From the NCBI GenBank assembly GCA_027262695.1, contig GCA_027262695.1_4722.1: a stretch of 64,000 nt of DNA, one strand, 5' to 3'. Shown one piece after another: positions 31,260 to 60,160 of the stretch. The notes under the pieces were generated by a model. It ran no database searches, had not been told where the DNA came from, and saw only the letters and a list, made by a program, of their open reading frames with translations. Position 1 is the first letter of the stretch. Every line of letters starts with the position of its first letter. The translations under genes were made by a program, and so were the position numbers. The DNA is from a phage.

Positions 31260-31263
31260 TTAA

Positions 31264-32490
31264 CTACTTCGTTTTCGCCGTTATCGGCTGCGATACTGTA
31301 ATCTCGACCCGATCGACATCGGTACGTTTAACGATGATAAGGCTGCGTTCATCACCGAATGGTTCTGAGATCTTACAAGCCTCTTTAAGATTTTCGAGAA
31401 TCGTGCCATGGGGTTCAAACACCGCAAAACCGGAACTAGCGTCGATTCTTATTAAATATACACGCACATTGTTTACGGTAATGGTGTCATCCGTCTTGAA
31501 CCCACAGCAGGAGGGTAGACAGAACTGACCATTAACGCAATTAGCTAAGTATGCCTCACCACCGAACATTTCTATTAACGTCACCGGTTTAAATGTTTTC
31601 TCTGGGAAAGCATTATTAAGAATATCGTTTCCATTCACAAACCAGATCGTTACTTTATCTTCGGAATACGCTAGTCTGTATGGTTGGGTTGCGGACGCCT
31701 GCGCTTTATGCTGGTTAAATAACTTTGATTTTGTCGCAATCACAGCACGACCTTGGGCGTCAAAGTACAGAACTTCATACCCAACACATCCGATAAACAC
31801 GCGACGGTTATTAAGTTCCGGAATTCTGACTACTAACGCATTACCATCTTCCGTCGGTGTAATACCACGTAGGATGATAGATTCGTTGTTCAATGTTGAG
31901 TTGCTCACGATGACGCTTCGCATTACCGCTGGCGACACTATTTCATCTGCTGCAGGTTCAAGTTGCTCAGCTGTTACAGTCACGGATCTGTCTTCCTTTT
32001 CAACTGGCCAGTTGAAAAGGATTGTTTTATTAAGACAAACAATTGGGGTAATTTCGCCGATACTCCGTATCTTGACTGAGGGGCAATTGCACACATACGG
32101 AACAAAAACATCAATATCGTTGGTCGCTTCTTCAAGCATGCTAGCATACGCCATTGCTTCGGGACGATCGGTGAGATGAATAACAGCATAGACGATATCG
32201 TCTTTTAACCACGCACGTTTCACTCGTCCTATAACACGATTGATGTCTACAATAACTCTCTGAGCTTTCATCTCCCATTTTACTGCATCAGTACCACCCG
32301 CAACCACGTTCGGTTTATCCGTGTTTACACGATGAAGGAAACTATTGATTATTTCCTCATCGATCTGGATATCCTTTCTCGCAAAATTCAACAACGGAAT
32401 AACGAACTCATTGTTACCGCACTTCTCTGCTCCGCGAATGATAGGAGTACACTTCTTGTTCTCATCTGATCCCCAGATAACTTTAGTCAT
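31264..32490 (-). CDS. hypothetical protein
   Basis: ORF track 31264..32517 (GTG); ATG 32490 with AAGGA upstream preferred. Confidence 0.5.
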   Translation of the reverse strand: MTKVIWGSDENKKCTPIIRGAEKCGNNEFVIPLLNFARKDIQIDEEIINSFLHRVNTDKPNVVAGGTDAVKWEMKAQRVIVDINRVIGRVKRAWLKDDIVYAVIHLTDRPEAMAYASMLEEATNDIDVFVPYVCNCPSVKIRSIGEITPIVCLNKTILFNWPVEKEDRSVTVTAEQLEPAADEIVSPAVMRSVIVSNSTLNNESIILRGITPTEDGNALVVRIPELNNRRVFIGCVGYEVLYFDAQGRAVIATKSKLFNQHKAQASATQPYRLAYSEDKVTIWFVNGNDILNNAFPEKTFKPVTLIEMFGGEAYLANCVNGQFCLPSCCGFKTDDTITVNNVRVYLIRIDASSGFAVFEPHGTILENLKEACKISEPFGDERSLIIVKRTDVDRVEITVSQPITAKTK

Positions 32491-32523
32491 TTTCTGTTTC
32501 CTTCTTGGGTTTTGCACAAGTTT

Positions 32524-33950: not shown

Positions 33951-33968
33951 CAGAAATCCTTATTTGTC

Positions 33969-36425: not shown

Positions 36426-36450
36426 GCTATGATAATCCTTCTTCGATACC

Positions 36451-36496
36451 TTCTGAACCACGGGTTCAGAATGCGAAGCTGAAGCCATACTTCAGC
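36451..36496. promoter_or_regulatory. two adjacent inverted repeats in divergent promoter region
   Basis: TTCTGAACC-acg-GGTTCAGAA (36451-36471) and GCTGAAG-ccata-CTTCAGC (36478-36496). Confidence 0.35.
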
Positions 36497-36539
36497 GTTA
36501 TTTTCTATATCGTTATTTAAATCAGTAGGAGATTACAGC

Positions 36540-37628
36540 ATGAGCGACCTGGCAACAGACAATCGCACAAAAGGGAGTCAGCTAGCTCCAGACAACAACG
36601 TAAGCGTTTTCCGTATCTATGCCTTGGGTACTGTTGCTGCCGACTTTTCCAATAAAAGTCTGGAGGAAGATCCTAACCAAACGCTGGAGGTCTTTCTTGA
36701 TGAGATGATGTCAGGCGCTGATGGGAAAGTTGAAGCGGCGGGAAGCGTTAAAGAAGTCAGTGCAACAGACGCTCAAGGGAACAGTTATACGGCGAAAGCG
36801 GCAACAACAACCAGCGTACAGTGTTACTGGTTACCTTTCGGTAGTAACCGGATGACAGCACCTAACTTGAGGAAAGGTCAGCGTGTGGTGGTCTGGCGTA
36901 CTGCTGATGAAGAACAACTCTATTGGCAGCCCAAAGGAGGGGATAGTGAGCTGATGACCATGGAATCGGTTATCCTCACCGTCAGCGCACGTCCTAGCGC
37001 TAAGAAGGACCGTAAATCGATTTCAACGGAAGACTGCTATTACCTAATGGTTGATACCTTTCTTAAGAAAGCGGTTATCGGTACAAGCGCACAGCTTGGT
37101 GAAGTTACCCAAGTCTACATGGAACTTAATCTGGACGAGGGTTACCTACAGGTTGCGGACAGCGTCCATCAAAATCTGCTGTTACTCCATTTCGTTGAAC
37201 ATATGCTGCGTTATCAAAACCAGGACGACAGCATCATCGACGTGACAAAAAAGAACATCACATTCCAGTGCGAGGATACGCTCAAAGCCATCGCTAAGAA
37301 CGATATCCGAATGAAAGCAAAAAACATTTATACCGAATGTGAGAACTTCGAGCGTACCAGCAAAACAGAAAGCGTTACGAGTCAGAATGTTTCTTTGAAG
37401 TGTGACCGCTACACCGCGCAAGTATCAGGACAAACCACGTTCAAATGTCCTAATACGGTATTCACCGGAGCTGTAAGCTTCACAGGTGAGGACGGAAACA
37501 CGATGACGTTGAATGGGAACTTCGTACATGTTGCGGGCTCTTGGCGTTCACCAACCGGAACAAACGTATACACCCACGATCATGGTGGTGTAGATCGTGG
37601 TAGCGGTCGTACAGACCCGTTCCAATAA
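36540..37628 (+). CDS. hypothetical protein
   Basis: 362-aa ORF, AGGAGA upstream; isolated plus-strand gene with hairpin 37651-37684 downstream. Confidence 0.55.
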   Translation: MSDLATDNRTKGSQLAPDNNVSVFRIYALGTVAADFSNKSLEEDPNQTLEVFLDEMMSGADGKVEAAGSVKEVSATDAQGNSYTAKAATTTSVQCYWLPFGSNRMTAPNLRKGQRVVVWRTADEEQLYWQPKGGDSELMTMESVILTVSARPSAKKDRKSISTEDCYYLMVDTFLKKAVIGTSAQLGEVTQVYMELNLDEGYLQVADSVHQNLLLLHFVEHMLRYQNQDDSIIDVTKKNITFQCEDTLKAIAKNDIRMKAKNIYTECENFERTSKTESVTSQNVSLKCDRYTAQVSGQTTFKCPNTVFTGAVSFTGEDGNTMTLNGNFVHVAGSWRSPTGTNVYTHDHGGVDRGSGRTDPFQ

Positions 37629-37650
37629 ACAAAAAAGAAATGCAACACAA

Positions 37651-37684
37651 CCTCCTTCCCCGGCCTGATGGCTAGGGAAGGAGG
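37651..37684. terminator. bidirectional hairpin CCTCCTTCCC...GGGAAGGAGG
   Basis: 10-bp stem between convergent genes. Confidence 0.55.
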
Positions 37685-37699: not shown

Positions 37700-38089
37700 T
37701 TAACGGATTGCGTTTTGGATGATTTCTTTTCCGATCGTAATCAAAGCAGGTATCTGTACTGCGGTTGCGCCTTGATGACGAAACGCGGTCGTTAATGCGG
37801 TATCGATGCTCACAGCACGTCCGTGAAGACGATCGAAATAGACTTGAGTGATAGCAGCGGCATACTCTTTTCGCTGTTTCTTGGTTTGGTTTACCATCGT
37901 CGCACTACTACCGACGATGAAATAAGCGATTAAGAAGAATGCGGCTGACCGTGAGCCGGGTAGAAAGCCTTGGCGTTTAGGAAGCATTTCACAATCACGA
38001 ACAGTAATACTGTTCGTGAGCTTTTCCATGTCGACATGGCATAATTTTGCATAGGTGTGAAGATGATGGGTAAAAGTTGAATTTAACAT
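37700..38089 (-). CDS. small membrane protein
   Basis: Central TM AAFFLIAYFIVGSSATMV; GAGGAAAG upstream. Confidence 0.5.
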   Translation of the reverse strand: MLNSTFTHHLHTYAKLCHVDMEKLTNSITVRDCEMLPKRQGFLPGSRSAAFFLIAYFIVGSSATMVNQTKKQRKEYAAAITQVYFDRLHGRAVSIDTALTTAFRHQGATAVQIPALITIGKEIIQNAIR

Positions 38090-38193
38090 TTCTTTCCTCG
38101 GTTACAATGAGTTCAATGTATGGCGTAAACGTCACAGAACGACGTATAACAGTTTGTTTTGATTTCTAAGGTGTTTCCCTATCTAAGAGTGAA

Positions 38194-38556
38194 TTAAAGC
38201 GTTCTGAAGAGTTCTGTGGCGTTCTCAGCACGTAAACATGCTTCGTTCAACAACTCCGCTAACAACTTCGATCTAACTTCAACGAATGTCCTGGTACGAT
38301 GCTCCCAGTCTAAACGGATGGTGTAAGTATCATCCATGTTTCTGTGGTCAACAACAGATGTTGAACAACGTGTTTCTTGTTTATTCACAGCACTCCAGAC
38401 ATCACGGATAATCGTCATGCCTTTCTTGGTGCACGTAAACGTCAAGATACAACGATTATTCGCTGCTTCTTCACAAACGTGAATAAATTCGCTTCGTAGC
38501 GATGAGGTCTTGGTCAATCGATCGATAGCAAGCGATAACCCAATACGTTGTTGCAT
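38194..38556 (-). CDS. small hypothetical protein (tandem family, possible third member)
   Basis: 120 aa; ILTFTCTKKGMTIIRDVW resembles the core of the two upstream genes. Confidence 0.45.
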   Translation of the reverse strand: MQQRIGLSLAIDRLTKTSSLRSEFIHVCEEAANNRCILTFTCTKKGMTIIRDVWSAVNKQETRCSTSVVDHRNMDDTYTIRLDWEHRTRTFVEVRSKLLAELLNEACLRAENATELFRTL

Positions 38557-38557
38557 A

Positions 38558-38971
38558 TCAAATTCCTTCTTTCAAAATCTCATTAAGGCCGTCTGCAACC
38601 GCGTCCAAATGGGCATCCATATCCGTTACGGTGTCAGCGGTAACTGTCCAGACGTGCTGTATTAATGTCTCACCATTCGTACATTTTACCATTTCCATCG
38701 CCAACTTTGTTTGTCCTGACGATGGTGAGATCTCATTGCTCCGCCAAAACGCAGCCTCGAGTAATGTTTTACCTAACGCTGTACACACAAAAGTAAATTC
38801 TACTTGACCAATACCTACCACCGAAGCGGATAACGGTTGGATATGTTCGCGCAGCTTATCATCTTCACGTAGGAGCAGCAGTGTACGATGTAAGTGTGTA
38901 CGGTGGGTAACAATAGCGTCGTAATGACCGATGCGTACATCGGCTACTGATTCAGGCCAGTTAATTTTCAT
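38558..38971 (-). CDS. small hypothetical protein (tandem paralog)
   Basis: 137 aa; VEFTFVCTALGKTLLEAAFW aligns with LGFVFSQTGKDVLENIFW of 38987..39430. Confidence 0.5.
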   Translation of the reverse strand: MKINWPESVADVRIGHYDAIVTHRTHLHRTLLLLREDDKLREHIQPLSASVVGIGQVEFTFVCTALGKTLLEAAFWRSNEISPSSGQTKLAMEMVKCTNGETLIQHVWTVTADTVTDMDAHLDAVADGLNEILKEGI

Positions 38972-38986
38972 GTTCGATTCCTCGTA

Positions 38987-39430
38987 TTAACACTGTGTTC
39001 CATTCGATAAGCGGGTGGTATCAAAACGATCCAGTTGGTGTACAATGCTATTAGCAACACGATGCAAATAGTGTATTTTGTCCATTCGTGAAATCGCAGA
39101 AATCGTCCAGCAAGCCTCTGACGTCCAATAGGTGCCGTCTTCACTAAGGCTAACGTTATAAACTAACTTCGTCATCACATTTCTCGCCTTATGCTCAGCA
39201 GACCAGAATATGTTTTCTAACACATCCTTCCCCGTTTGTGAAAACACGAACCCAAGCTTCACGTCGAGGTCGGATGCTTCAAGATTAACGAAGTGAAGAT
39301 GATTCTCCAAAGGCGCAAAAGAGGCTAAACGTTCCAGCGCGTTTTGCAGCGTGGGATGATCGAGCTTTTCGAGATCATCCACAGGTTGTTCAGGTACAAT
39401 CGCGATCGATTTACAGAATTTAATTTCCAT
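38987..39430 (-). CDS. small hypothetical protein (tandem paralog)
   Basis: 147 aa; shared core motif with 38558..38971. Confidence 0.5.
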   Translation of the reverse strand: MEIKFCKSIAIVPEQPVDDLEKLDHPTLQNALERLASFAPLENHLHFVNLEASDLDVKLGFVFSQTGKDVLENIFWSAEHKARNVMTKLVYNVSLSEDGTYWTSEACWTISAISRMDKIHYLHRVANSIVHQLDRFDTTRLSNGTQC

Positions 39431-39459
39431 GGTAGGTTCCTCTTGATAGATGGTAGTAA

Positions 39460-39479
39460 CGGGGATACCGCGGTATCCC
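39460..39479 (-). terminator. intra-operon hairpin GGGGATACCGCGGTATCCCC
   Basis: Perfect 20-bp palindrome between two minus genes. Confidence 0.4.
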
Positions 39480-39487
39480 CTAAGTCT

Positions 39488-39958
39488 TTATAACACGCCC
39501 CAAGCCATATTGGGTACAGGCTCGTTACGTTCGATGTAATACATCAAGCGTTCTTTAAGTTTGGTTAACGCCTCAGCAACGATGTTCTCCATGGCAATCA
39601 CCTTTCCAATGTAATCCATGGTATCCTGCCACGTAAACCATTCGACGGTATTGACGATGTAAAGGGTTTCATCGTCGTCGGTCATGACCTTGGCATTTTC
39701 ACGATGATCGCGGGTCGCGTATAACGGTGTTTTTAGATTCGCTCTGATACGTACCCAGAGCTTCTCCAGGAAATCGCTCGGTTGACTATCTGTCGTGATG
39801 ATAAGTTCACTCCGTACTGAACGCTCTCCACGCTTTTCAATAACAAGTAAACCATCGTAAGTGATGTTCATCAAGTTACGAAGGTCATCATTGCTATTCC
39901 AGTCTTTTACAACAGCAGGAAGTTGGCTATTGTACTCTTCAGGTAATCTCTTAAGCAT
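39488..39958 (-). CDS. hypothetical protein
   Basis: 156-aa ORF. Confidence 0.5.
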   Translation of the reverse strand: MLKRLPEEYNSQLPAVVKDWNSNDDLRNLMNITYDGLLVIEKRGERSVRSELIITTDSQPSDFLEKLWVRIRANLKTPLYATRDHRENAKVMTDDDETLYIVNTVEWFTWQDTMDYIGKVIAMENIVAEALTKLKERLMYYIERNEPVPNMAWGVL

Positions 39959-40403
39959 CGGTTTCTGCTCCTATATCACGTTTGAGTTCGGCGACCAGTT
40001 TGTCGTAATGGTCTTTTATCACATTCGCCATAACGAATTGCGCTTTTCTCACTAGCTGCTCATTGGCATCACTGAATGTAAAATACTCTCGCACTTCAAC
40101 CGGATGTGATACGCCACCGATATCGTAGGCTTTATTCGATGTGCGTTGAGCGATCACTGGGAGCGGTTTCGCGGCGTTCAGCGCAGTACAGATTTCCGTA
40201 ACGAGTTCTTGAATTTGGCTTTTCCCTTCGATGATAACGCTGCAACGATAAACATCCACCTCGTTAAGTTGTTCAACAACATCCGCCTTGATTTTGAATT
40301 GACCTACAAGCGCGCTTACTAAAGTGCGGTGCCAATTGTTCACCACTCCAACCAGCAATGGATGATTCTCAAGATCTCTTCTGTTCATTTCTGAGCTCCT
40401 CAA
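39951..40403 (-). CDS. hypothetical protein
   Basis: 150-aa ORF overlapping downstream gene by 8 nt. Confidence 0.5.
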   Translation of the reverse strand: MRSSEMNRRDLENHPLLVGVVNNWHRTLVSALVGQFKIKADVVEQLNEVDVYRCSVIIEGKSQIQELVTEICTALNAAKPLPVIAQRTSNKAYDIGGVSHPVEVREYFTFSDANEQLVRKAQFVMANVIKDHYDKLVAELKRDIGAETDA

Positions 40404-40425
40404 TCGCTCTATAACAAACTTTTAG

Positions 40426-40450
40426 AGGAAGGGAAACATATTCCCTTCCT
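40426..40450 (-). terminator. hairpin GGAAGGGAA-acata-TTCCCTTCC
   Basis: 9-bp stem between 40468..40743 and 39951..40403. Confidence 0.4.
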
Positions 40451-40467
40451 TGAGTTAGTTTATTGCG

Positions 40468-40743
40468 TTATACGTCTTTTCTGTGCGCGTAGAACGCCTT
40501 CGTTCCGTTGTTGATCGCCTCAACCACATCCGGGGTTAACACAACGGCGATATCGCTTCGAGATGACGGTGCGTAATACCCTTCACCGTTCTCGGTAATC
40601 AGGCGATAACGGACTAAGCCTATGTTCGGTTCAACGCGTACCACTCTTTCGAGTTTGTACTTGATGATCTTCGTCAGGCCGATAGTCTCTGATGCGTAGA
40701 TGGCTTTATAAACTTTGTTCTTTGCTGTCGTTTTCATCAACAT
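40468..40743 (-). CDS. small hypothetical protein interleaved in paralog cluster
   Basis: ORF track 40468..40812; internal ATG 40743 chosen to limit overlap with paralog 1 (still 38 nt). Confidence 0.4.
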   Translation of the reverse strand: MLMKTTAKNKVYKAIYASETIGLTKIIKYKLERVVRVEPNIGLVRYRLITENGEGYYAPSSRSDIAVVLTPDVVEAINNGTKAFYAHRKDV

Positions 40744-41599
40744 GGTTTCTGTTTTCCTTGGTTTGTTGTGGTCCCAGGTCGGAGATATCCCAACGGATAT
40801 AACCAACATCACGGATTCGCTCGGCTGTTTCTTCGGATTGTGGATTACGACTGATAACCGGTAGCCATTCCCCTTCTCGGGTTATCTTAACTTCGGTGAT
40901 CTGTAAGCTCATGTTCCAACGAACGTCATAAACCAGCGCGTAACCAAGAGGATGAACAAGCCCATCTTGGTTATACATCTTCAAAAGACCTCTTACATCT
41001 TCGCTACGAAGTGATTTCATGGCTGGACGTACGCGTTGAAGTCTCTTTGTGATATCGTATCCCAACTTAATATCCTTCCAACCCGTCATGACGTAAGGAA
41101 CAACGTTGCGGCGACGGAGTTGATGGTTGTGAGTGGTTTCTTCGGCGGTAAGATGTACCCAACCGAGATCGCTGTACGCCACGAACCGCGCTCCTTCTCC
41201 ATCGAGCACTGTGTGCTCATCTAACGCTGCTGCAACACCATGGCCTGCGTAATACGACGGAAGAACGTTCAGCATTTTAATACGGCTTTCTTGACCGGTA
41301 TGGTCAGGGTCGATATGCGCGTAGTAATAATTACGGCTTACCGGACGACCTTCCGCCATACATCCACGGAAGACAGGGTCCTGCATTCCAAGCGGATGGT
41401 AATACGCGAGCTGTTGCTCGTCACCTTCCCCGATGACCAACAAACGATCTTCACGACTTGGTGTGCTAGGATCTTTCACCGTGATGTAGGTAACAATCAC
41501 TTTCAGATTGTCTAAAATGTCCTGTGGAAGTTTCTCTAAATCCCGTGCGTCGTAAATACGATTAACAACAACGTTTGCAATGTGTTTTGGTAAGCTCAT
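40706..41599 (-). CDS. member 1 of triplicated ~270-aa paralog family (unknown function)
   Basis: Shared motifs LAYYHPLGMQ, SDLGWVHL, HPLGYALVYDVRWN, GYIRWDISDL; unique C-terminal extension. Confidence 0.6.
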   Translation of the reverse strand: MSLPKHIANVVVNRIYDARDLEKLPQDILDNLKVIVTYITVKDPSTPSREDRLLVIGEGDEQQLAYYHPLGMQDPVFRGCMAEGRPVSRNYYYAHIDPDHTGQESRIKMLNVLPSYYAGHGVAAALDEHTVLDGEGARFVAYSDLGWVHLTAEETTHNHQLRRRNVVPYVMTGWKDIKLGYDITKRLQRVRPAMKSLRSEDVRGLLKMYNQDGLVHPLGYALVYDVRWNMSLQITEVKITREGEWLPVISRNPQSEETAERIRDVGYIRWDISDLGPQQTKENRNHVDENDSKEQSL

Positions 41600-41644
41600 T
41601 TTAGATCTCTCTTTGTTATCGGTAAAATAAATAACGGCATAAAT

Positions 41645-41660
41645 GGGACATAACTGTCCC
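41645..41660 (-). terminator. hairpin GGGACA-taac-TGTCCC followed on minus strand by TTTATGCCGTTATTTATTTT
   Basis: Between paralog 2 stop and paralog 1 start; motif at 41633-41642. Confidence 0.45.
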
Positions 41661-41679
41661 CGTGTTAAATATCAACTGT

Positions 41680-42522
41680 TCACGCTTTCAAGTCTGAAAT
41701 ATCCCAACGTACGTAACCTGTACGCTCAATGTCGTCAACCAGTCGCTCGGTTTGATTTTCAACGCCAACGACGGGCACCCAATTTAAACGCCAGCGTCCA
41801 CCGACATTAACCTCAACACGCTGCAGATCTTCATTCCAACAAACCCCATTCGGTCTCAAAAAGCCCATCGGATGGATGTAGTCCTCATCGTAATCTTTCA
41901 ATAGCGCGAGAATATCGCTTCGGCTATAAGTCTTCACGCTTGCTAGATGTACGCTTTGTAGCTTATCACGCAGACCCCAACCGTACTCACTATCACGCCA
42001 TTCAGGCATGACAACCGGCAGTACATTCCGATGACGGATGTATTTTGCCGCTTCAGCAATATCAGCTGGGAGATGTATCCAACCTAAATCGCTGTTAGCG
42101 ACAAAATCAGGACTATCCATTTCATGGATGTAACGATCGTAAAGCGTAGCAGCGAGTCCTTCAGCAAGCACGTTTGTTGGAAGGAGGCAGTTGGCGCTTA
42201 TCTTGAAATCGAATACATCGGCATCAGGATCCACGTATGCGTAAAACCCGCGCGCAAAAGCACCGCCATGCTCTTTGAAGTAGTATTGGAACACAGCGTT
42301 TTGCATTCCGATGGGGTGGTAGTAAGCCAACACACGTTGTTCGCCGTCCGTGATTTCAATGAGCCGATCTTTCGGCTTCGGCCAGGTGATCTTCTCAACA
42401 TCGCAAACGCTGACGATCTTTCGTAGATTCACCTTGATATGTTCCGGGAGATGCCCGATTTCATTTTCATGATAAACACGGGTGATGACGTGATGAATAA
42501 CAGATTGTGGTTTAGCTGTCAT
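41680..42522 (-). CDS. member 2 of triplicated paralog family
   Basis: LAYYHPIGMQ, SDLGWIHL, HPMGFLRPNGVCWN, GYVRWDISDL. Confidence 0.6.
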   Translation of the reverse strand: MTAKPQSVIHHVITRVYHENEIGHLPEHIKVNLRKIVSVCDVEKITWPKPKDRLIEITDGEQRVLAYYHPIGMQNAVFQYYFKEHGGAFARGFYAYVDPDADVFDFKISANCLLPTNVLAEGLAATLYDRYIHEMDSPDFVANSDLGWIHLPADIAEAAKYIRHRNVLPVVMPEWRDSEYGWGLRDKLQSVHLASVKTYSRSDILALLKDYDEDYIHPMGFLRPNGVCWNEDLQRVEVNVGGRWRLNWVPVVGVENQTERLVDDIERTGYVRWDISDLKA

Positions 42523-42554
42523 TTGACGTCTCCTTTTCGTTTGTTGGTGATGGT

Positions 42555-43627: not shown

Positions 43628-43639
43628 GGATAAAGTTCC

Positions 43640-44075
43640 TTGTTTTCACGTTGTTTGATTAACGTATTGATTTCTGATGATGATAACATCGATATGTTTG
43701 CTGTTATCAAGAAGGTAATATAGCCGTGAAAGGATTTGTATTACAGAAAGGATATTTGTTTTTAAGAAGGGACGATGGTTATCAGGAAGGAGGTTATCGG
43801 TAGGTGTAGGAGAGGGGATTTCAAGGAAGGTTTAAGAGGATAGTTATGTTGTTTAGTTGAGAGTTTGCTAAAATAGCTTTATCGTTATCTTAGTTTATCT
43901 GTGTATTCGTTAGGTATCTTGATTTATCTTCTTAATGATCTTTTCAAAAGTGTTATCATGGTTATCTTAGGTTATGTCTTAATTGTTTTATCTTGGTATG
44001 TTTAAGTTGTTTTAAGTTATCTGTTTATCTATCTTGTTATCTTGTTTAAGTTGTTAATGGCTTATCTTCAAAACA
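43640..44075. repeat. AT-rich non-coding region with purine-rich (A/G)GAAGG repeats (about 43700-43850) and at least 8 TATCTT iterons (about 43880-44070)
   Basis: No credible ORF; copies such as GTTATCTTAG, GGTATCTTGA, TTTATCTTCT, GGTTATCTTAGG, TTTATCTTGG, GCTTATCTTC; TGTTTAAGTTGTT twice. Confidence 0.6.
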
Positions 44076-44085
44076 ATGGATAACA

Positions 44086-44131
44086 TGTGTTTACTACGCT
44101 CGTTGAGTTATAACTCAACGGTAACACATGT
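44086..44131. promoter_or_regulatory. composite palindrome: perfect 20-bp CGTTGAGTTATAACTCAACG flanked by inverted ACATGTGTT / AACACATGT
   Basis: 44101-44120 is its own reverse complement; flanking arms extend the dyad imperfectly. Confidence 0.45.
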
Positions 44132-44535
44132 CATCTGTGCATTACACTACGTTACATGCTTATCAACGTTTTGTGAAGACAAAACGTTCAACTCTAAAAA
44201 ACCATTTGTGATACTCTTCTTCACGTTGTTCATCAGAGTATCTCGTCTATCCTCACTGCGTTCGCATACGACATCACCGTTATACGCTAACGCTACGCTT
44301 ATAGCTTATAACTCTAAGGATAAAAACATAAACTCGCTTCGCTCGTTTAGTTTTTCTTTTTCTTAGAGTTATCATGTTGCTCGTCTCTAAAGGACTTCGC
44401 TCCTCCCCCGTCCCCCGAAGGGGCCGAGGTCGTGGAAATTTTACTTTCCAAATACATTTACAACGTCTGTAAACTTTTACCGACACATACCTAATCTTAT
44501 ATTTAAAATTAGAAAAAGAGAAAATACGAACATAA

Positions 44536-44566
44536 CCCTCCTCCAACCCGGAAGGGAAGGAGGAGG
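44536..44566 (-). terminator. hairpin CCCTCCTCC-AACCCGGAAGGGAA-GGAGGAGG
   Basis: Same family as 13571; after stop of 44585..45478; followed on minus strand by TTATGTTCGTATTTT. Confidence 0.6.
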
Positions 44567-44584
44567 TGATAACAGTCTATTTAA

Positions 44585-45478
44585 TTAATCGGAAGTGTTA
44601 TAACCGAATACTGCTTTACCGTAGGTGTGAGTACCATCACTGAGTGACAATACTAATACGTGGTTATACGCATCGTTAACACCCTTGTCGGTAGAATCGG
44701 TGGTAACACCGTTGTAGACAAAGGTAGCTGATTGCAGATTGGTTTTCAGTTCATTGATGATATCATCACTTACACCAGTCTGCTCTTTAATCAGAGTAGT
44801 CAGGTTACCTGCTAAGCTTGCGTCGAGATTTACTTCGTTGCCAGTAATAGCTTGTAAACCTGAAGCGTAAGTACTGAAGTCTAACGGATAGGTTAACAGA
44901 CGTGCTGACGTTTTGGTACCATTGCCTTCATCAACGTAGGTTAAGTTACCCAGGTTGGTAACCTTGATAATGTTAGACAGATCCAGCGTTGTGTTATAAA
45001 CTTTAACTTGAACAGAACCATACCAAGCCAACGAATCTTCTTTGGCTTCCAGGGTAACGGTTTGGATACCTGACTGATCAAAGGTAACGGGATTAGATAA
45101 CGTTTCAGCTTTGATGTCTTTTGTTTTATCCAGGAACTTCTCGCCGGAAGGCGTAACCATACCGTAGCGTTGAGCTACGAGGTCGACCACGTCACCGATG
45201 GTGGTGTTTGCTTCAACACTAACGCGCACCGCGATCTTCTGGAACCATTTAGCCAGATCCAGACGATGATAGGTGACATCGCGGGTATTGAAGTACGGTG
45301 TACCATCACCCGGACTGAGTGTTAATGTTGCTGCACTATCAGAATCGCTTTTGGATTTAAGAACGTATTTGAGATCAGTGTATTTGAAACTGGCTCCCGT
45401 ATCGGCGTTAAGCTGGTTGATCTCATCAACGATAAGTTGCCACGGTGTTTTCAAAGTAAGTGATACTCGACTTGACAT
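44585..45478 (-). CDS. structural-region paralog family member A (YYDR-YG-LAWTGSV family)
   Basis: VTYHRLDL, LVAQRYGMV, LAWYGSVQV. Confidence 0.55.
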   Translation of the reverse strand: MSSRVSLTLKTPWQLIVDEINQLNADTGASFKYTDLKYVLKSKSDSDSAATLTLSPGDGTPYFNTRDVTYHRLDLAKWFQKIAVRVSVEANTTIGDVVDLVAQRYGMVTPSGEKFLDKTKDIKAETLSNPVTFDQSGIQTVTLEAKEDSLAWYGSVQVKVYNTTLDLSNIIKVTNLGNLTYVDEGNGTKTSARLLTYPLDFSTYASGLQAITGNEVNLDASLAGNLTTLIKEQTGVSDDIINELKTNLQSATFVYNGVTTDSTDKGVNDAYNHVLVLSLSDGTHTYGKAVFGYNTSD

Positions 45479-45514
45479 TTTTTTACCTCGATGGTTGTTA
45501 CATCACTCTCAAAA

Positions 45515-46163: not shown

Positions 46164-46172
46164 TAAGCACGT

Positions 46173-47219: not shown

Positions 47220-49268
47220 TTAAATACCCTTGGTTCCTTTCACGCGGTGCGCAATTTCTTCAACCATTGCACGCAAGGCACGAAGCTGTTGGTCGTGTTC
47301 GTACCAACCGCCTAACAGAACCCCGCTATACACCATGGTGTCCAGACTTAACAGTCCTTTATCTGATACGTTGATCATTTCAGGGAACTGTTCTTGTACA
47401 CGTTGTGCGATAACACCGATCTTCTCAACATCAGGATCGTAGTCGTGACGGAAACGGGCAAGCCCGGTGTATGCCATTTCACGTAAACGATCACTGAAAG
47501 ATTCTGGATGGTCTTTCAGATAACGGATGTCGTGTTTACTACGCTCATCTGAACGGATGTATGCGTTAGGAACATCGATGTTGCTGTTGAAGTACAACGC
47601 GCTACCACCACCTGCAGAGTTACCCCAATAGAAGCTAGTAAGAATGCTACCGCCATTACCTGTAACATGCACGGTGCTTCCCACCCTCGTTCCACCGCTA
47701 CCATCAACGAAGACCAGTTTGTTTCCGCTGTAAGAACCCCAGAACAGACGACTATCGATGATGTTGGTTGCGGCGAGGCGGGCGTTACGTGGTGTAGAAT
47801 AGACGGTGTTGATATCTTGCTGCGCCTGTGCGTCAGAAGCGATACCGTAGTTCTGCACATTACCTAAACCTACTTGGGCTTTTGTAACAGCGTGAGGGTT
47901 GTCTCGACGGTTAGCGTGATTGTTAACCAGATCGCCCGCCAATTTCTGAATTGCCCAGTTGGTAGACTGTGGCGTCATGTAACGGTTAGTTGCAGAACCA
48001 CCTTGCGCCTCAGCTTGGTTAGCGGTTGGGTAGTTCTCAACGCTTCCTAACCCTACTTGTGCCTTAGACACTTGGTGCGGGTTATTCTTGTCGGCAATAT
48101 GTGCATTAAGCGGAACTAACGCGAAGGTCTCGATGGACGCTTTGGTTGTGTTCGGTGCCATTAATCGGTTAGCTGCAACCCCAGCACGTGCTTCATCCTC
48201 CGAAGCCATCGGATAGTCTTGCACATTACCTAATCCTACCTGCGCTTTGGTCACCTTGTGCGGGTTGTTGTAATCGGTTTTATGTGCGTTAAGCGGAATC
48301 AATGCGAATTGTTCAATCGCTGCAACGGTACGTAGCGGCGTCATGAATCGGTTATTCGCTGTTCCGTCCTTCGCCTCGCTATCCGAAGCGGTCGGGAAGT
48401 TATCAACGTTCCCAAGGTTAACCTGTGCTTTGGTAACGCTATGTGGGTTATCTTTACGATTAGCGTGAGCGTCGACTAGATCCCCACCCAGTTTAGCAAT
48501 CGCCCATCCAACCGTTTGTGCGGTCATGTATCGGTCAGGTGCTGTACCGGCTTCTGCCTCCGCCTTGTTTGCGGTAGGATAGTTCTGTACATTACCTAAA
48601 CCTACTTGGGCTTTTGTGGTTTCGTGCGGGTTATCGGTACGGTTAGCATGCGCGTAATGCAGATCGGTAAGGTCTTTATCCGCCGCTTGCATGTCTTTAC
48701 GTAGCTGATCGATTGCCGCCCAGAGACGGTTATCGGACGCAGCATCACCGATAAGTATTGCGGCTTTCAGCGAATAGATCGCTAAGCAAAGATGTTCGGT
48801 ACCGTAGATAGCACTAACATGGTGGATGTGTGGTTCAGGCGGATAAAGTTCCGGTTTGTTCTTGATGTCGTCCCAGTTGATCGGACGATCGTCAAGTTTG
48901 AGTTCTTCGATAGCCTGATATAACGCGTCAATAAGACTTACGTAAACACCACCGATGATACGATAGTCGTTAATTAACGTCCCCTCGATATCATCGTTGA
49001 TGATGGCGATCGCCGCACAGATTTCTTTACCTGCGTAAAGCGTCGCATCCTGATACAAGAAGATGGGTTTATAATCCACGCCTCGTACCAGTGTCTTACC
49101 GGTAAGCTTTTCAGTGATGACCAGACTTTCGGTAAAGAACGGTCCGCCATCAAGGGCGTAACATTTATTCTCGGTTCGTGGAACGGTATGCTCTTCACCA
49201 ACGATGTGGTTGCTGGCGAGTGTACCGGTCCAGTCCTCGGGGTACTTCAGGGTAATTGGTGTCGACAT
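47220..49268 (-). CDS. tail fibre protein with five NPH..TKAQVGLGNV repeats and C-terminal S74-type intramolecular chaperone domain
   Basis: Repeats about 47846-48656; C-terminal SDERSKHDIRYL...GVIAQRVQE (about 47220-47590) matches the autoproteolytic chaperone motif of endosialidase/T5 pb1-type fibres. Confidence 0.75.
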   Translation of the reverse strand: MSTPITLKYPEDWTGTLASNHIVGEEHTVPRTENKCYALDGGPFFTESLVITEKLTGKTLVRGVDYKPIFLYQDATLYAGKEICAAIAIINDDIEGTLINDYRIIGGVYVSLIDALYQAIEELKLDDRPINWDDIKNKPELYPPEPHIHHVSAIYGTEHLCLAIYSLKAAILIGDAASDNRLWAAIDQLRKDMQAADKDLTDLHYAHANRTDNPHETTKAQVGLGNVQNYPTANKAEAEAGTAPDRYMTAQTVGWAIAKLGGDLVDAHANRKDNPHSVTKAQVNLGNVDNFPTASDSEAKDGTANNRFMTPLRTVAAIEQFALIPLNAHKTDYNNPHKVTKAQVGLGNVQDYPMASEDEARAGVAANRLMAPNTTKASIETFALVPLNAHIADKNNPHQVSKAQVGLGSVENYPTANQAEAQGGSATNRYMTPQSTNWAIQKLAGDLVNNHANRRDNPHAVTKAQVGLGNVQNYGIASDAQAQQDINTVYSTPRNARLAATNIIDSRLFWGSYSGNKLVFVDGSGGTRVGSTVHVTGNGGSILTSFYWGNSAGGGSALYFNSNIDVPNAYIRSDERSKHDIRYLKDHPESFSDRLREMAYTGLARFRHDYDPDVEKIGVIAQRVQEQFPEMINVSDKGLLSLDTMVYSGVLLGGWYEHDQQLRALRAMVEEIAHRVKGTKGI

Positions 49269-52936: not shown

Positions 52937-52954
52937 CCCACCCATCCGTTATAA
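52937..52954 (-). terminator. hairpin GGTGGGT-aga-ACCCACC followed by T-rich run on minus strand
   Basis: Overlaps stop of fibre gene 52949..55102; TTCCTTTCCTTCTTTTTATTTTT follows on transcribed strand. Confidence 0.55.
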
Positions 52955-55102
52955 CGTTTCGAAGTCGGTTGCTTTGATAACCGCGTTGAAGTTGGCAAGG
53001 AATTCCTTAAGCAACGCTTGGAAGACATCACGGAACGCCGTGTTCGTCTTCAAACTGGTTAAATAATCGTTCTTAAGGTAATCGCTCAGCTTACCGATCT
53101 TCTGCATCTTCTCGCCGTCTTCGTTCTCTCCAGGTTCTTGGCTGTTGATGTTAACCCATTTGATCCCTTCGAGATCGCCATCGGCAAGGAAGTTAGCGGG
53201 CGTCTCATCGTCGTTCAGGATTTTAATTGTGTCGCTGGATTCAATGCCACCGTAAGCTTCCAGAAGCTGGTTGACTGTTAGCGTGTTGGTGTTGATTGAA
53301 CCATTGACACCATCAATACCGATGCCTGCACCTGTGATGGATGTCGCCGAAAGATCGATCGGCCCGGTTAACTTACCACCGTTGATCGGTAACGCACCAA
53401 CTTGCTCTGCGGTGTGTGTGTGGTTGGCTAACGCCGCAAACGCCGCGATAGACTTATATGTCGAATACGGCGTCATGTACGCTGATTGGTTGGTGTTGTC
53501 AGCGGCTTCAGTATCGGTAGCGACATTAAAGTTCTGCACGTTGCTGAGACCGACCTGCGCCTTCGTTACTTCATGCGGGTTGCTCTTATCGACAACGTGT
53601 GCTGCAAAACCGTCACCGGCTAAAGCGGTGATTGCTGCTTTTGTCGCAGCCGGTGTCATATAGCGGTTGGTTGCTTCACCTGCCTGTGCTTCCGCATCAG
53701 AAGCAACAGGATAGTTCTCAACGCTCCCCAAACCGACCTGAGATTTTGTTACTTGGTGTGGGTTTTCGGTATTCGCGATATGGCTACTGAATCCTTGACC
53801 AGCCAGTTGCTCGATTGCGTAACGAACAAGTATTGGCGTCATGTACTTGTTGTTAACCTGACCATCGATGGCTTCTTGGGTGGTGGCAACCCCGAAGTTT
53901 TGCACGCTCCCCAACCCAACTTGCGCTTTCGTAACAGCGTGGGGGTTATTGGTGTTACCGATGTGATCGGTAACCGTTGGGGTGATTAATCCTGCGATAG
54001 CGGCTGCCGTGGTCGCAGGGGTCATGTATTTATCGTTAGCAACACCCGCAGCAGCTTCTACGTTAGATGCTACACCGTAGTTCAATACATTTCCTAACCC
54101 AACCTGCGCCTTGGTTACCCCGTGGGGGTTGTTCTTGTCTCCGGTATGGGTTGTCAACGTAGCGTTAACGTTATCGATACGCGTGCTTAAGCTATCAGTG
54201 ATTGCTTTGATTGCGGCTCGTACACCCGCTGGTGTTGTGTACAGATCTGTGGCCGTACCGGTAATGGTTGTATTACTATCGGCTACACCGTAGTTCTCAA
54301 CGTTTCCGAGTCCCACCTGGGCTTTCGTTACCTTGTGTGGGTTGTTGTAGTTGCTGATGTGCGCAGCAGCACTATCACCACTCAGGTTAGCGATCATCTT
54401 ACGCGTCATCGCCAACGTCATGTACAGATTTTCACCGATGGTTTCCAGATCGCTCTCGGTCGCCGTTGTGAAGTTCTGCACATTCCCCAATCCAACTTGA
54501 GCCTTGGTTACCCCATGGGGATTATCGCGACGATTCTCGTGCTGCAGCAATGCGGTCATTGCTTTATTGAACCCTTCTTCAAGCGGTTCTTTCAATGATT
54601 CGATTGCAGCCACCACATCGTCCCACGTCATTGTGTCGGTTTCGACATTATGCTGGTGGTTGATTGGCGGGAATACGGAAGGAACGTCGGCAACCTTTTC
54701 CCAGAACGTAACGCGGGGATCGTAAAGGTTGTTGGCTAAAACGTTAAGAATTTGTTGTTGATCAAGTGTAAACTCACCCCCCAGTGAATAGTAGTTCAGT
54801 TGCAACTGTCCACTGAATGCGGTGTCCAACAGCATGATGGAACCGTATAATTCCAGGCCGGTCAGCGCAGCCATGGCACGGAAGGGGTGAGTGCATAAAA
54901 AGTCAACGCCTTCTTCCAGATACGCGTTTGTTTCCGGGTTGTAGATCTTTAATCCATTACGAAAATATGGCGCGTATTTAGGAACGAGAAAGTTAAATCC
55001 GGTCCCCGTGGAAGGACGGACAGTGACGAGTTCTTCTGGAACCCATGCGCCATCCAAATTCCCCTGCGGGTTATACGGAAGGCGTTTAATTTCATCTGTC
55101 AT
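52949..55102 (-). CDS. tail fibre protein with six NPH..TKAQVGLGNV repeats
   Basis: Repeats about 53530-54541, e.g. NRRDNPHGVTKAQVGLGNVQNF, NNPHKVTKAQVGLGNVENY. Confidence 0.7.
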   Translation of the reverse strand: MTDEIKRLPYNPQGNLDGAWVPEELVTVRPSTGTGFNFLVPKYAPYFRNGLKIYNPETNAYLEEGVDFLCTHPFRAMAALTGLELYGSIMLLDTAFSGQLQLNYYSLGGEFTLDQQQILNVLANNLYDPRVTFWEKVADVPSVFPPINHQHNVETDTMTWDDVVAAIESLKEPLEEGFNKAMTALLQHENRRDNPHGVTKAQVGLGNVQNFTTATESDLETIGENLYMTLAMTRKMIANLSGDSAAAHISNYNNPHKVTKAQVGLGNVENYGVADSNTTITGTATDLYTTPAGVRAAIKAITDSLSTRIDNVNATLTTHTGDKNNPHGVTKAQVGLGNVLNYGVASNVEAAAGVANDKYMTPATTAAAIAGLITPTVTDHIGNTNNPHAVTKAQVGLGSVQNFGVATTQEAIDGQVNNKYMTPILVRYAIEQLAGQGFSSHIANTENPHQVTKSQVGLGSVENYPVASDAEAQAGEATNRYMTPAATKAAITALAGDGFAAHVVDKSNPHEVTKAQVGLSNVQNFNVATDTEAADNTNQSAYMTPYSTYKSIAAFAALANHTHTAEQVGALPINGGKLTGPIDLSATSITGAGIGIDGVNGSINTNTLTVNQLLEAYGGIESSDTIKILNDDETPANFLADGDLEGIKWVNINSQEPGENEDGEKMQKIGKLSDYLKNDYLTSLKTNTAFRDVFQALLKEFLANFNAVIKATDFETL

Positions 55103-56540: not shown

Positions 56541-57446
56541 TCAGGCTACGTATAACGTTAGATAACCTTCAATGAGGGTGTTCATTACACTGAGTTGGAG
56601 AACGACAGCTTTACTAACATCCGTACGCACCCCGAACGGTAGCGTTTTGAAGTGCTCTGGATCCGTAATAACTTTCGCGTTTTGTAGGTTAAGCGATCCT
56701 GGTATCGCTGACAATACCCAACGATCGTTAACCGTCAGACCAACGATCTCTTCAGAAAGTCCTAACTTCAGAGTGTTCATTTCTGCAATCAGGGCTTCTG
56801 AATGCGCATCGCCCGATGTTAACGTGTAACCATCGGTTAACGCCGTCAACACCGCATCCGATACGAACCAGTTGTACGATACGATCGCACCTGGTAGCTT
56901 ATCGCTATCCCGATCGATGATGTAGTTAAGACCAGCTAACATGTTGTTACGGATGAGGTTGTTCAGGTCGTTATGACCTGATGTCAACTCAACAAGCAGT
57001 TGACCGACCCAGACTTGGTTACCGGGTTTCGGTGTTATTACAACCTGTATCGGCTGTCGGGATTTGTCCAGATCAGCATCAACGATTTCGGTTTTATTCA
57101 GCAGGATACCGTACGTTGAGGCTAAGACAGGCAATACCTCAGAAACCTTGGTCAGTGTATCTAAGGTTTCGATTTCTATCGGCCAACGATGTTGCCCACC
57201 AGACCAAATACCGAGTTTGCTAAGATCGATACGGTTGTAATAGATGTCGACGGAGTTCACGAGCCCGGAACCCGGTTGTGGGTGCACGGTCAACATACTG
57301 TTGCGTTTGTATCCCGTGCTTTCAGAAGCCTCACCGATAACCAGCTTATCCAGCGTCACACCCCGAGCATCGAAATCGCTATGTTTTCGAATCAGTCGGA
57401 AGAGAATTTCCTTTGATTCTAGCCCCAGGATTTCACTGTACTCCAT
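56541..57446 (-). CDS. structural-region paralog family member C
   Basis: DIYYNRIDL, LASTYGILL, QVWVGQLLV. Confidence 0.55.
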   Translation of the reverse strand: MEYSEILGLESKEILFRLIRKHSDFDARGVTLDKLVIGEASESTGYKRNSMLTVHPQPGSGLVNSVDIYYNRIDLSKLGIWSGGQHRWPIEIETLDTLTKVSEVLPVLASTYGILLNKTEIVDADLDKSRQPIQVVITPKPGNQVWVGQLLVELTSGHNDLNNLIRNNMLAGLNYIIDRDSDKLPGAIVSYNWFVSDAVLTALTDGYTLTSGDAHSEALIAEMNTLKLGLSEEIVGLTVNDRWVLSAIPGSLNLQNAKVITDPEHFKTLPFGVRTDVSKAVVLQLSVMNTLIEGYLTLYVA

Positions 57447-57461
57447 TTAACACCCCTTAGG

Positions 57462-58346
57462 TTACGGTAGGATTTCTGCACCGGTTGGACCTGCCTTACG
57501 GGCTTCCAACGCACCAAGGTCGTATTTCAACGTTAACGTATCGTTGGTGGTGTAGAGGTTGTGGTACGTTGAAATCAGGTCGGTAACTTGAGCTCCTACG
57601 ATTTCGTTCATATCGAAGTTGGAACCTTGACCGTCATCAGCACGAACGATTTTATCGCCCGCAGAGACTATTCCAATTTCAGAAATAACCGCGTACTCTT
57701 CACCACCCTCGGTGAGCTTAGCCACATTGCGGTATTCGTTAATATCCCACGGTGTCCAAACCAGAGACACCTTGCAGCTGTAATCGTAATACTCACCTGT
57801 CGCCACTAAAATTCCGGTGGTCGGAATATCCGGTCGTGGCGGGTTGAGGTTCACATCGGTGGGATGCCATTCGATGGTCTGAGCAACACCATCAATGTAT
57901 TTGGTATAACGCATGGAGCGGACAACGTTATCGAAATCGATGCGGCGACCGTAATAACAGATGTACTTTTTACCGCTTTCCAGCGTCTCGATACGCCGTA
58001 ACCCAAATTTAGCACGTTCGTCCGTGGTTAAATCGTTACCCACTTCACGCATTACAAATGGCTTGATCTTCCACGGTGAAAGATTGCTTGCTTCATGGGC
58101 GATCGGCATCGAGGAAGGGATACCGTTCGCATTACGGATGAATTCATGACCCAGGTTACCGATACAGAAGTAACGTACGGCAGGATTACCTTCAGGGTAG
58201 ATCTTCGCTTGGATCTGAAGTTTTTCGTTCAGGGTGCTATGTTCTTCCCACGCGTGAGGAAGTCCCAACGTCAGGTTGGTTTGTACTTGACCACCGATAA
58301 TCGTACGAACGATACGATCGGTAGCACGGATTTGTGTAGAAGCCAT
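57462..58346 (-). CDS. hypothetical structural protein, possible divergent member of the same family
   Basis: YICYYGRRIDF and VSLVWTPW loosely match family motifs. Confidence 0.45.
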   Translation of the reverse strand: MASTQIRATDRIVRTIIGGQVQTNLTLGLPHAWEEHSTLNEKLQIQAKIYPEGNPAVRYFCIGNLGHEFIRNANGIPSSMPIAHEASNLSPWKIKPFVMREVGNDLTTDERAKFGLRRIETLESGKKYICYYGRRIDFDNVVRSMRYTKYIDGVAQTIEWHPTDVNLNPPRPDIPTTGILVATGEYYDYSCKVSLVWTPWDINEYRNVAKLTEGGEEYAVISEIGIVSAGDKIVRADDGQGSNFDMNEIVGAQVTDLISTYHNLYTTNDTLTLKYDLGALEARKAGPTGAEILP

Positions 58347-58362
58347 GTCTTTTCCTATTTAA

Positions 58363-59214
58363 TCAGTTATATTGCATCAACAGGATACCGCCGTAGTTCG
58401 TGCAGTAATCTTGACTTAGTGTAACGATAACCGCATTAGCGAATGCTGGGTTAACCGGATAGCCCTGGGCGATAAGGTCGGTTGTTTTACCTGTTGCGAG
58501 CACGGTTGCCCCATACAGGTTGTTTTCGTCCTCACGACCGTTATAAACCCAAGGGGTTGGTGCAACGTTGTTGAATAAACTCACCAGTGCGCTTAAGTTA
58601 CTACCAACCTTTAATCCAGCAAGATCGGAACGGATGGCTGTACAATCAATAGCGTAACTGTAAACCAATGCCTGGATACGATTTGCGGTGTAGTACGGGA
58701 AATTGAGGCCGGTCATCACCGTGGTCTTCATCATCCCTGCAATATCGCGTGCGCTATCGAGAAGATAAAATTTAACACTCCCTGTCCAGGCTAATCCGGT
58801 TGTTTTCAATTCTACGACATGAGGGAACGGATATTCATCACCTCGAACAATCGGAGAATCAACGCAGCTTTCCTGATCGATAACGATTCCGTACGTTGAT
58901 TGGATCAGCGGGATAAGATCGTGCGTGGTTTTAACACCGGCATCGATTGCAAGCTTCGGCTCCATTCCCAAGAAGAAATCCTGGATTGGAATACGATCGT
59001 ACCATACGTAGCTGCTTTCACGGTACTGCGCTGGTGTTACGGTTGCCGAAGGCGATACTTTAGCGCGGGTATTTCGATTATACGCGTGGTTTCCGTTTTC
59101 AGCAACATCCGTGATATCAAGTGCATCGAAGTTAAAGTCGAAGTCAGGATTGGCTACCTGAATAAGTTCGGCGACCAGTACTTTAGGACTTTTGTTTAAC
59201 AATTTCTGACTCAT
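58363..59214 (-). CDS. structural-region paralog family member E
   Basis: YVWYDRIPI, LIQSTYGIVI, LAWTGSVKF. Confidence 0.55.
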   Translation of the reverse strand: MSQKLLNKSPKVLVAELIQVANPDFDFNFDALDITDVAENGNHAYNRNTRAKVSPSATVTPAQYRESSYVWYDRIPIQDFFLGMEPKLAIDAGVKTTHDLIPLIQSTYGIVIDQESCVDSPIVRGDEYPFPHVVELKTTGLAWTGSVKFYLLDSARDIAGMMKTTVMTGLNFPYYTANRIQALVYSYAIDCTAIRSDLAGLKVGSNLSALVSLFNNVAPTPWVYNGREDENNLYGATVLATGKTTDLIAQGYPVNPAFANAVIVTLSQDYCTNYGGILLMQYN

Positions 59215-59224
59215 TGTTTATTCC

Positions 59225-60160
59225 TTAGCCTTGTTCTTTCGGGGAACGGCCCTGAAGGCTTGCGGTATGCCCGTCGACATTATAATAGAAAATCAACGGA
59301 CCGCCAACAGCAGTACAGTAGTTTTCATCCAGACTGATTTCGATGCCGTATTGGTAACCTGCGCGAGCCGGGATACGTTCGCCTAACTCACCGTTGAAAT
59401 CCACCTTCGCGTTATACAGGTTGTATGGCGCTGTGTTATCGGTTAATACCCAACGATCGGTGGTCATTTCAGCCAGAAGGTCAGCAACCATCACATCGCT
59501 AACAACGGTACCTGTTACCAGCGAAGCCAAAAGCTCACCGTACTCAGACGTATCGCGACTGTAACTGTAGATTTCACCGCTTGCACGTACACCCTGTCCA
59601 AAGAACTTAAGACCGTCCAGCTCTTTGATCGCGATGATATCATCAAGATTCGGTACACGCGATTTCATCAGGATACGAACGCTCCCCGTCCAAGCCAGGC
59701 AACTAGATACGACGCGAAGCAACTGTCCGTTAACGGTATCCCAGTTAAGTTCATCGTTGACGATTTCTTCAGCTGTAAGGCCAAGACCGAAACGTTCCTT
59801 GATGATAGGCCAGATATCACGCATCTTGGTGGCGTCTGGCGCATCAATAAGAATAGGCGCTACGTTACGCAGATACGCGCCGATATTAATACGATCGTAA
59901 TACAGCGTCGTCGAACCTTCATAATCGTCTAACTCAGTAAGCTTAGCGGTTGCCGTTGCCGTAATCTGGGTGTCGCGCTCGTAGGCGCTTTGGTTAGTGG
60001 TTGGTGTTCCTAAAACCAATAATTCAGGTGTCAGGACGTGTTCTCCGTTCTGAGGTGGGTTATCGTGGTTGATAAGACCGTACACGAGATCGGATGAAGG
60101 TAAAGAGACGTCAACCGGGTAAAGTTCGGTGCCGTCAGTAGTTGTTACCGTATCACTCAC
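59225..60160 (-). CDS. structural-region paralog family member F
   Basis: TLYYDRINI, IIKERFGLGL, LAWTGSVRI. Confidence 0.55.
   Translation of the reverse strand: MSDTVTTTDGTELYPVDVSLPSSDLVYGLINHDNPPQNGEHVLTPELLVLGTPTTNQSAYERDTQITATATAKLTELDDYEGSTTLYYDRINIGAYLRNVAPILIDAPDATKMRDIWPIIKERFGLGLTAEEIVNDELNWDTVNGQLLRVVSSCLAWTGSVRILMKSRVPNLDDIIAIKELDGLKFFGQGVRASGEIYSYSRDTSEYGELLASLVTGTVVSDVMVADLLAEMTTDRWVLTDNTAPYNLYNAKVDFNGELGERIPARAGYQYGIEISLDENYCTAVGGPLIFYYNVDGHTASLQGRSPKEQG

Follow-up and report, generated by a model that had tools for sequence, protein, structure and literature searches.

A Goslar-like jumbo phage with three tandemly duplicated small genes

Organisation of the locus

The window, by which we mean the whole stretch of 64,000 nucleotides of phage DNA that was analysed (contig GCA_027262695.1_4722.1 of assembly GCA_027262695.1), is related to Escherichia phage vB_EcoM_Goslar, which the region discussed here matches over part of the query with about 87% nucleotide identity. 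Goslar is a nucleus-forming jumbo phage (Chimalliviridae) and the E. coli model for phages of this type. A preliminary description of the window had reported a tandem array of three small open reading frames (ORFs) between positions 38,194 and 39,430; all three were recovered precisely there, on the minus strand and with the motifs that had been quoted for them. They are referred to as C, B and A in their order of transcription and are given below together with their neighbours and the hairpins of the locus.

40468..40812, minus-strand block: further gene, between a triplicated gene family and the array
40425-40451: hairpin preceding gene E
39951..40403, minus strand: gene E, 150 aa, absent from Goslar and Goslar-type loci, upstream of D
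39488..39958, minus strand: gene D, 156 aa, about 39% identical to Goslar gp018, directly upstream of C together with E
39461..39480, minus strand: GC-rich hairpin between gene D and C, without U tract (RNA fold -14.7 kcal/mol, z -2.5)
38987..39430, minus strand: paralog C, ORF of 147 aa, orthologous to Goslar gp017 and heading the C-B-A cassette
38558..38971, minus strand: paralog B, ORF of 137 aa, orthologous to Goslar gp016, with the greatest variability of the three
38194..38556, minus strand: paralog A, ORF of 120 aa, ortholog of Goslar gp015
37700..38089, minus strand: gene Z, 129 aa, counterpart of Goslar gp014, with which the minus-strand block ends
37651..37684: strong hairpin terminator (inverted repeat, -31.4 kcal/mol, z -6.2), closing the block after Z and convergent with the tail-spike gene

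The cassette is tightly packed: C and B are separated by 15 nt, B and A by 1 nt. The TGA of B stands one base from the ATG of A (window positions 38545-38560), and the ribosome-binding site of A (GAAGGA) is encoded inside the invariant C-terminal residues LKEGI of B, so that part of the C-terminal conservation of B may reflect a constraint of translational coupling and not of the protein. A is missing about 20 N-terminal residues that are present in B and C, and is basic, with a pI of 8.4 versus 5.4 and 5.6 for B/C. Neither a membrane segment nor a signal peptide was found in A, B or C, and their GRAVY values are negative. The hairpin between D and C could act as a processing or pause site; the site equivalent to the hairpin behind Z is annotated as a terminator in Goslar. 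A scan of 36-46 kb with Rfam found nothing.

The minus-strand block to which the cassette belongs spans from a promoter-like motif near 43.7 kb to the hairpin terminator at 37.65 kb, and also holds the triplicated family, whose members have 258, 280 and 297 aa. The array had been described as lying immediately downstream of this family, and the two families as nested. Three genes (40468..40812, 39951..40403 and 39488..39958), none of them a detectable member of either family, were however found between the two, which follow one after the other in the same block; with unrelated genes in between and the arrays in series, both of these statements had to be abandoned.

In Goslar, the block corresponds to gp014-gp021, each of them a 'hypothetical protein' by annotation, flanked by the tail-spike gene gp13 on one side and by the virion proteins gp22/gp23 on the other. 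The orthologs of A, B and C, gp015, gp016 and gp017 (YP_009820700-702), occupy the interval from gp014 to gp018 in unchanged order and orientation, with amino acid identities of 85% for A, 47.5% for B and 96.6% for C. Compared to the window, Goslar is without gene E and without the triplicated gp021-like family.

Common origin, distribution and allelic variation

Ortholog sets were collected from a database of 5.8 billion proteins and from contigs, yielding 15 B clusters, 12 A clusters (two of them partial) and 5 C clusters. In pairwise BLASTP, B matched C with 30% identity over 74 aa (E 2e-5), and A stayed below significance (E 0.033 to B, 2.0 to C). On comparison of the ortholog-family profiles with hhalign, B and C aligned over 129 of about 137 columns, starting at residue 1 and reaching the C-terminal helix (E 2.4e-8, probability 95%), A aligned to B with an E of 1.6e-4, and A aligned to the merged B+C profile over 81 columns (E 1.2e-5, probability 81%). 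The scores of the B-C and the A versus B+C alignments were 53.6 and 35.9, versus maxima of 25.0 and 16.2 in the respective column-shuffle nulls, and in both cases none of the 60 shuffles reached the observed value. The pairwise registers of all three agree (A37 = B58 = C58), and F61, G67 and W108 (B numbering) are invariant in the merged alignment. The families of D, E, Z and F, which served as neighbour controls, all gave E > 0.05 and probabilities < 1%, and a merged three-family profile HMM matched A, B and C alone among the 145 ORFs of the window. The kinship proposed in the preliminary description, with B and C as the closer pair and A as a looser third member, was thus borne out by formal profile-profile alignment and by structure prediction (below), two of the checks suggested there; presence across related phages, the third, is described further on. 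Since no repeat between A, B and C remains at the DNA level, the duplication is old, and the three genes descend from a single Goslarvirus-specific gene by ancient tandem duplication.

Genes D, E, Z and F were also considered as extra members and turned down at the sequence level. In hhalign, Z gave E >= 0.069 to A/B/C, and genes D and E gave 0.18-0.26, inside the shuffle null; in hmmsearch with the family profile, D was obtained with an E-value of 4.6 only, and gene E was not among the matches listed. By eye, D (SELIITTDSQPSDFLEKLW) and E (VYRCSVIIEGKSQIQELV) have a strand-helix pattern and a late aromatic residue like the A/B/C core, with all formal comparisons being non-significant.

In a tblastn search of 50,697 phage records, A, B and C were found in Goslar only, and a HMMER scan of 1.84 billion cluster representatives returned 8 clusters, all of the A, B or C types. 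Complete E. coli genomes contained no match for B, and no relative was found in GTDB genome contigs. In these sequence searches, the family is confined to Goslar-like phages. Pfam, PHROG, NCBIfam and PADLOC, queried with A, B, C and their neighbours, returned noise only and no usable match, with no known defence or anti-defence family at a meaningful E, and the best hit of the family profile in a PDB sequence search had an E of 0.71. The gene order (E)-D-C-B-A-Z is kept in about 11 independent Goslar-like contigs, with A, B and C intact and Z always after A. The sources of the family sequences are named as Shigella, Salmonella and E. coli, which fits the report that 59 of the 60 known genomes of Goslar-like phages were obtained from bacterial assemblies, representing four genera of Enterobacteriaceae (10.1101/2024.12.31.630880).

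Between the window and Goslar, dS amounts to 0.04 for C, 0.5 for Z, 0.6 for A and about 1.9-2 for B (1.5-2.1 across Goslar-type alleles). The dN/dS ratios of 0.08-0.49, obtained with saturated dS, indicate purifying selection on all genes. Among the clusters of B (n=15), identity ranges from 96% down to 37%, with the variability concentrated in residues 50-57 (β1-β2 turn) and 76-125 (end of α2, β3, β4 and start of α3 in the model described below). Conservation in spite of the saturated dS is seen at the N-terminus, in α1, in β2 with the beginning of α2, and in the 12 C-terminal residues. Accelerated evolution of B in situ was ruled out, since its dS is saturated as well; its alleles are therefore old. 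Allele combinations differ in every locus, each paralog assorting its alleles independently; the block is therefore a mosaic, assembled by recombination from old alleles on which purifying selection acts.

The backbone around the block is 98-100% identical to Goslar. The region of ~37700-46200, comprising the gp014-like to gp023-like genes, forms a plasticity island in which identities vary from 39-97% and genes are gained or lost. In the flank that was compared (30100-37630), an ORF of 417 aa (31264..32517) is an exception, with only 62% identity to Goslar.

Two kinds of natural variants affect C. An in-frame fusion of D and C with a length of 111 aa (P0036) is found at positions 1405-1740 of L016 and 1405-1740 of L017 (GCA_047444535.1; SRR32103871). 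It consists of residues 1-42 of D and of C from about residue 70 and replaces both genes, so that the N-terminal half of C (α1, β1, β2) is lost in that lineage. In another relative, L006, C is truncated at its C-terminus.

Transcription class and virion content

Transcription of the Goslar block has been recorded by RNA-seq under knock-down of chimallin (ChmA), which prevents formation of the phage nucleus. The log2 fold changes were +0.8 to +1.4 for gp014-gp021 (Sup. Table 2, 10.1101/2023.09.20.558163), versus -2.8 to -7.6 for gp005-013 and gp022-036 (10.1101/2023.09.20.558163), with the structural genes flanking gp014-gp021 falling 8- to 190-fold. According to the authors, the knock-down transcriptome matches early infection (10.1101/2023.09.20.558163). 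As gp014-gp021 are maintained in it, the Goslar block is nucleus-independent and early, and in Goslar these genes behave as early genes transcribed from the infection vesicle. The RNA data pertain to the Goslar orthologs; for the phage of the window, synteny and a conserved upstream motif point to the same early class. The copies of this motif are as follows.

43715..43731, minus strand: TTTCACGGCTATATTAC(CTTCTTGATAACAG), candidate motif of an early promoter; the 258-aa gene, first of the block ending in C-B-A-Z, starts 88 nt downstream
28980-28996, minus strand: second copy of the TTTCACGGCTATATTAC motif in the window
15875-15891, minus strand: third copy of the TTTCACGGCTATATTAC motif in the window
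L006 3080-3096, L009 2309-2325, L012 1421-1437 and L014 714-730: copies in relatives, upstream of the equivalent first gene of the block
L001 11931-11947, minus strand: further site of the motif

The three window copies (43715-43731, 28980-28996 and 15875-15891) are located 32-92 nt upstream of starts of minus-strand genes. In the relatives, the distance between motif and gene is 88 nt in L006 and L014 and about 135 nt in L012, and Goslar has a copy with two mismatches 89 nt upstream of gp021. The extended motif (...CCTnCnTGATAACAG) has three intergenic copies in the window, a number that was reached in 0 of 100 shuffles; TATATTAC by itself is not enriched (4 found, 2.1 expected), the enrichment being confined to the extended motif. 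TATATTAC resembles the core of the phiKZ early promoter. In the paper on the Goslar vesicle, two early transcripts are described to have leaders of 91 nt. On sequence grounds, we regard the TTTCACGGCTATATTAC motif as a candidate early promoter of the virion RNA polymerase. A scan for sigma-70 promoters remained at chance level (16 found, 15.7 expected).

The promoter-like motif is contained in a stretch of 957 bp (43628-44584) without an ORF of at least 100 aa, which separates the early block from the DUF7941 virion gene. The same stretch includes an ORF of 88 aa (44280..44546) that is conserved, with 97.7% identity in L006, and the equivalent gap in Goslar has 854 bp and is unannotated.

Evidence at the protein level is provided by mass spectrometry of a Goslar virion preparation (10.64898/2026.04.21.720040), in which gp017 was represented by 4 peptides and estimated at about 12-29 copies per virion (~19; Table S4), gp018 at about 4 copies and gp016 at < 1, with gp015 and gp014 undetected. 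Of the non-virion proteins in the same preparation, chimallin was estimated at ~126 and thymidylate synthase (ThyA) at ~20 (10.64898/2026.04.21.720040); as these occur at equal or higher levels, the 19 copies of gp017 are within carry-over. Peptides found in this way prove translation, not packaging. The proteins gp015-gp017 are not among the 28 proteins of the Goslar cryoEM model, and a role of the A/B/C orthologs as structural proteins of the Goslar virion was rejected on account of their position outside this model, their low or zero copy numbers and their nucleus-independent transcription.

Predicted fold and proposed function

Structures were predicted with AlphaFold2 for B, using the merged alignment (pLDDT 89.3, pTM 0.84), and for A, using A orthologs alone (pLDDT 92.0, pTM 0.84). 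The model of B comprises α1(25-36), β1(44-53), β2(56-63), α2(65-81), β3(87-96), β4(102-111) and α3(115-135), and that of A comprises α1(3-17), β1(24-32), β2(35-42), α2(44-60), β3(65-72), β4(78-85) and α3(89-119). Both have the same α-ββ-α-ββ-α order, with an offset of ~21 residues that equals the register of the sequence alignment. This agreement is one between the models of A and B, the former being independent of B/C sequences. The predicted fold is that of a small soluble single-domain protein, a two-layer sandwich with a four-stranded antiparallel sheet packed on helices.

Neighbours of the two models were sought with Foldseek among the predicted viral structures of BFVD, and the lists for A and B overlap. 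The best neighbours of the B model are uncharacterised proteins of ~140-165 aa from other jumbo phages, which occupy ranks 5-33 in the list for A. Among them are PhiPA3 gp356, 201phi2-1 B3FJY3 and B3FJT6, and proteins of Erwinia phages Simmy50, Stratton and Kwan, Vibrio phage VP4B, Photobacterium phage PDCC-1 and Klebsiella phage RaK2, with E 2e-5 to 2e-3 and a moderate TM of 0.45-0.6. For PhiPA3 gp356, which is annotated as similar to phiKZ gp290, the values are E 2e-5 and TM 0.40-0.45, and no sequence link of the family to this protein was found in hhalign (E 0.35). In fold class, the models resemble DCoH-like/RBP11-like sandwiches (RNAP alpha NTD, Rpb11, subunit L, PCD/DCoH, Pcc1), the C-terminal domain of Mfd and the TYW3-like UPF0130, with 5-14% identity and no common motif; the DCoH-like/RBP11-like references are characterised by a ββαββα core and by dimerisation via the sheet edge. 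As the matches are scattered over many unrelated families, we take them for likeness of fold class and not for evidence of homology or function. A search of the literature on Goslar gp15-17, PhiPA3 gp356 and phiKZ gp290 found nothing, and a paper on Avs5/JADA proved to be unrelated to A/B/C.

The best explanation overall, though still short of probable, is that the lineage-specific duplicates A, B and C are early binding modules, most likely counter-defence or host-takeover effectors. They would be non-enzymatic and made early in the host cytoplasm, and their targets would be strain-variable host factors. The conserved helices and the β2/α2 core would hold the fold, and target specificity in B would reside in the hypervariable β1-β2 turn and the surface formed by the end of α2, β3 and β4. 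Pairing via the sheet edge, in homo- or heterodimers, is suggested by the predicted fold class. A more specific proposal, which we consider unlikely as it stands, would have A/B/C as a new early cytoplasmic effector family that neutralises strain-variable host immune sensors, a defence class against which the phage nucleus cannot shield; B would then be an arms-race allele, and the family the Goslarvirus branch of a sequence-diverged structural superfamily of jumbo phages that includes PhiPA3 gp356.

Four alternatives were each scored below an effector role. If A, B and C were packaged in the virion at low copy number, they would enter the cell by injection together with the DNA and act on the early infection vesicle or inside it. 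The estimate for gp017 is indeed like that of bona fide packaged vRNAP subunits (8-21 copies), gp018 was detected as well, and the genes are situated between the tail-spike gene and genes of high-copy virion proteins. We nevertheless hold packaging to be very unlikely, given the carry-over level set by chimallin and thymidylate synthase, the values for gp016 (below 1 copy) and gp015 (undetected), the absence of gp015-gp017 from the cryoEM model, and the sharp drop of the sampled flanking structural and virion genes in the ChmA knock-down, which gp014-021 do not share. It is also quite unlikely that the three proteins have a housekeeping role internal to the phage, for example as small dimerisation or adaptor subunits of its transcription or nucleus-establishment machinery. 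The family is limited to Goslar-like phages, without a link in sequence to PhiPA3 gp356, its alleles are extremely variable, and relatives carry the D-C fusion without the N-terminal half of C or a C-terminally truncated C; an indispensable, conserved component of the machinery would not be expected to vary so much, to be truncated or to be so narrowly distributed.

A function in the coexistence of phages with each other or with the host, by superinfection exclusion or persistence in a carrier state, would suit the origin of 59 of the 60 Goslar-like genomes from bacterial assemblies and their description as 'persistent' virulent phages (10.1101/2024.12.31.630880). Its restriction to one lineage, its early expression and a diversity of alleles by which related phages might be told apart would agree with it too. 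The case is one from distribution only, however, and no membrane segment or signal peptide is present in A, B or C. We consider this role highly improbable. Finally, functionless or decaying duplicates, or mis-called ORFs, would be compatible with the lack of a family or function match in any library searched, with the fused D-C gene of one relative and with the truncated C of another. They are already contradicted by dN/dS values of 0.08-0.49 over saturated dS, by the preservation of all three genes, intact and in synteny, in about 11 independent contigs, by Goslar peptides for two of the three (gp016, gp017) and by the high confidence of both structure models, and can hardly be credited any more.

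An effector role as binding modules thus stays the preferred reading. To our knowledge, most early genes of Goslar have no assigned function. Three adjacent hypothetical proteins now gain a common origin, a confident predicted fold and, from the Goslar data, an expression class. The hypervariable surface and the natural variants (divergent B alleles, truncated C, D-C fusion) make them testable candidates for host-specific counter-defence, takeover or persistence proteins, and the candidate early-promoter motif would help to delimit early transcription units in Goslar-like phages. Should the genes prove dispensable without a phenotype, they would represent an ordinary lineage-specific gene family. 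The feature itself is genuine but ordinary in kind, consisting of lineage-specific, tandemly duplicated early accessory genes that offer useful handles for experiments.

Other multigene families of chimalliviruses, namely the PF12699 inner-body proteins and the DUF7941 proteins gp22/gp23, are likewise lineage-restricted, duplicated and often encoded in one operon (10.64898/2026.04.21.720040). Both families consist of virion proteins of high copy number, and knock-down of ChmA sharply lowers the transcripts of those gp22/gp23 members that were sampled. In contrast, A/B/C have no sequence relationship to them, are nucleus-independent (Goslar data), and are scarce in virions or missing from them. 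Further paralogs within the window were found by all-against-all BLAST: two genes of 680-720 aa (47220..49268 and 52949..55102) resemble the Goslar gp025-like tail fibre, are 38-48% identical and have internal repeats, and a four-member family of ~290-310 aa includes the DUF7941 gene (44585..45478, 56541..60160).
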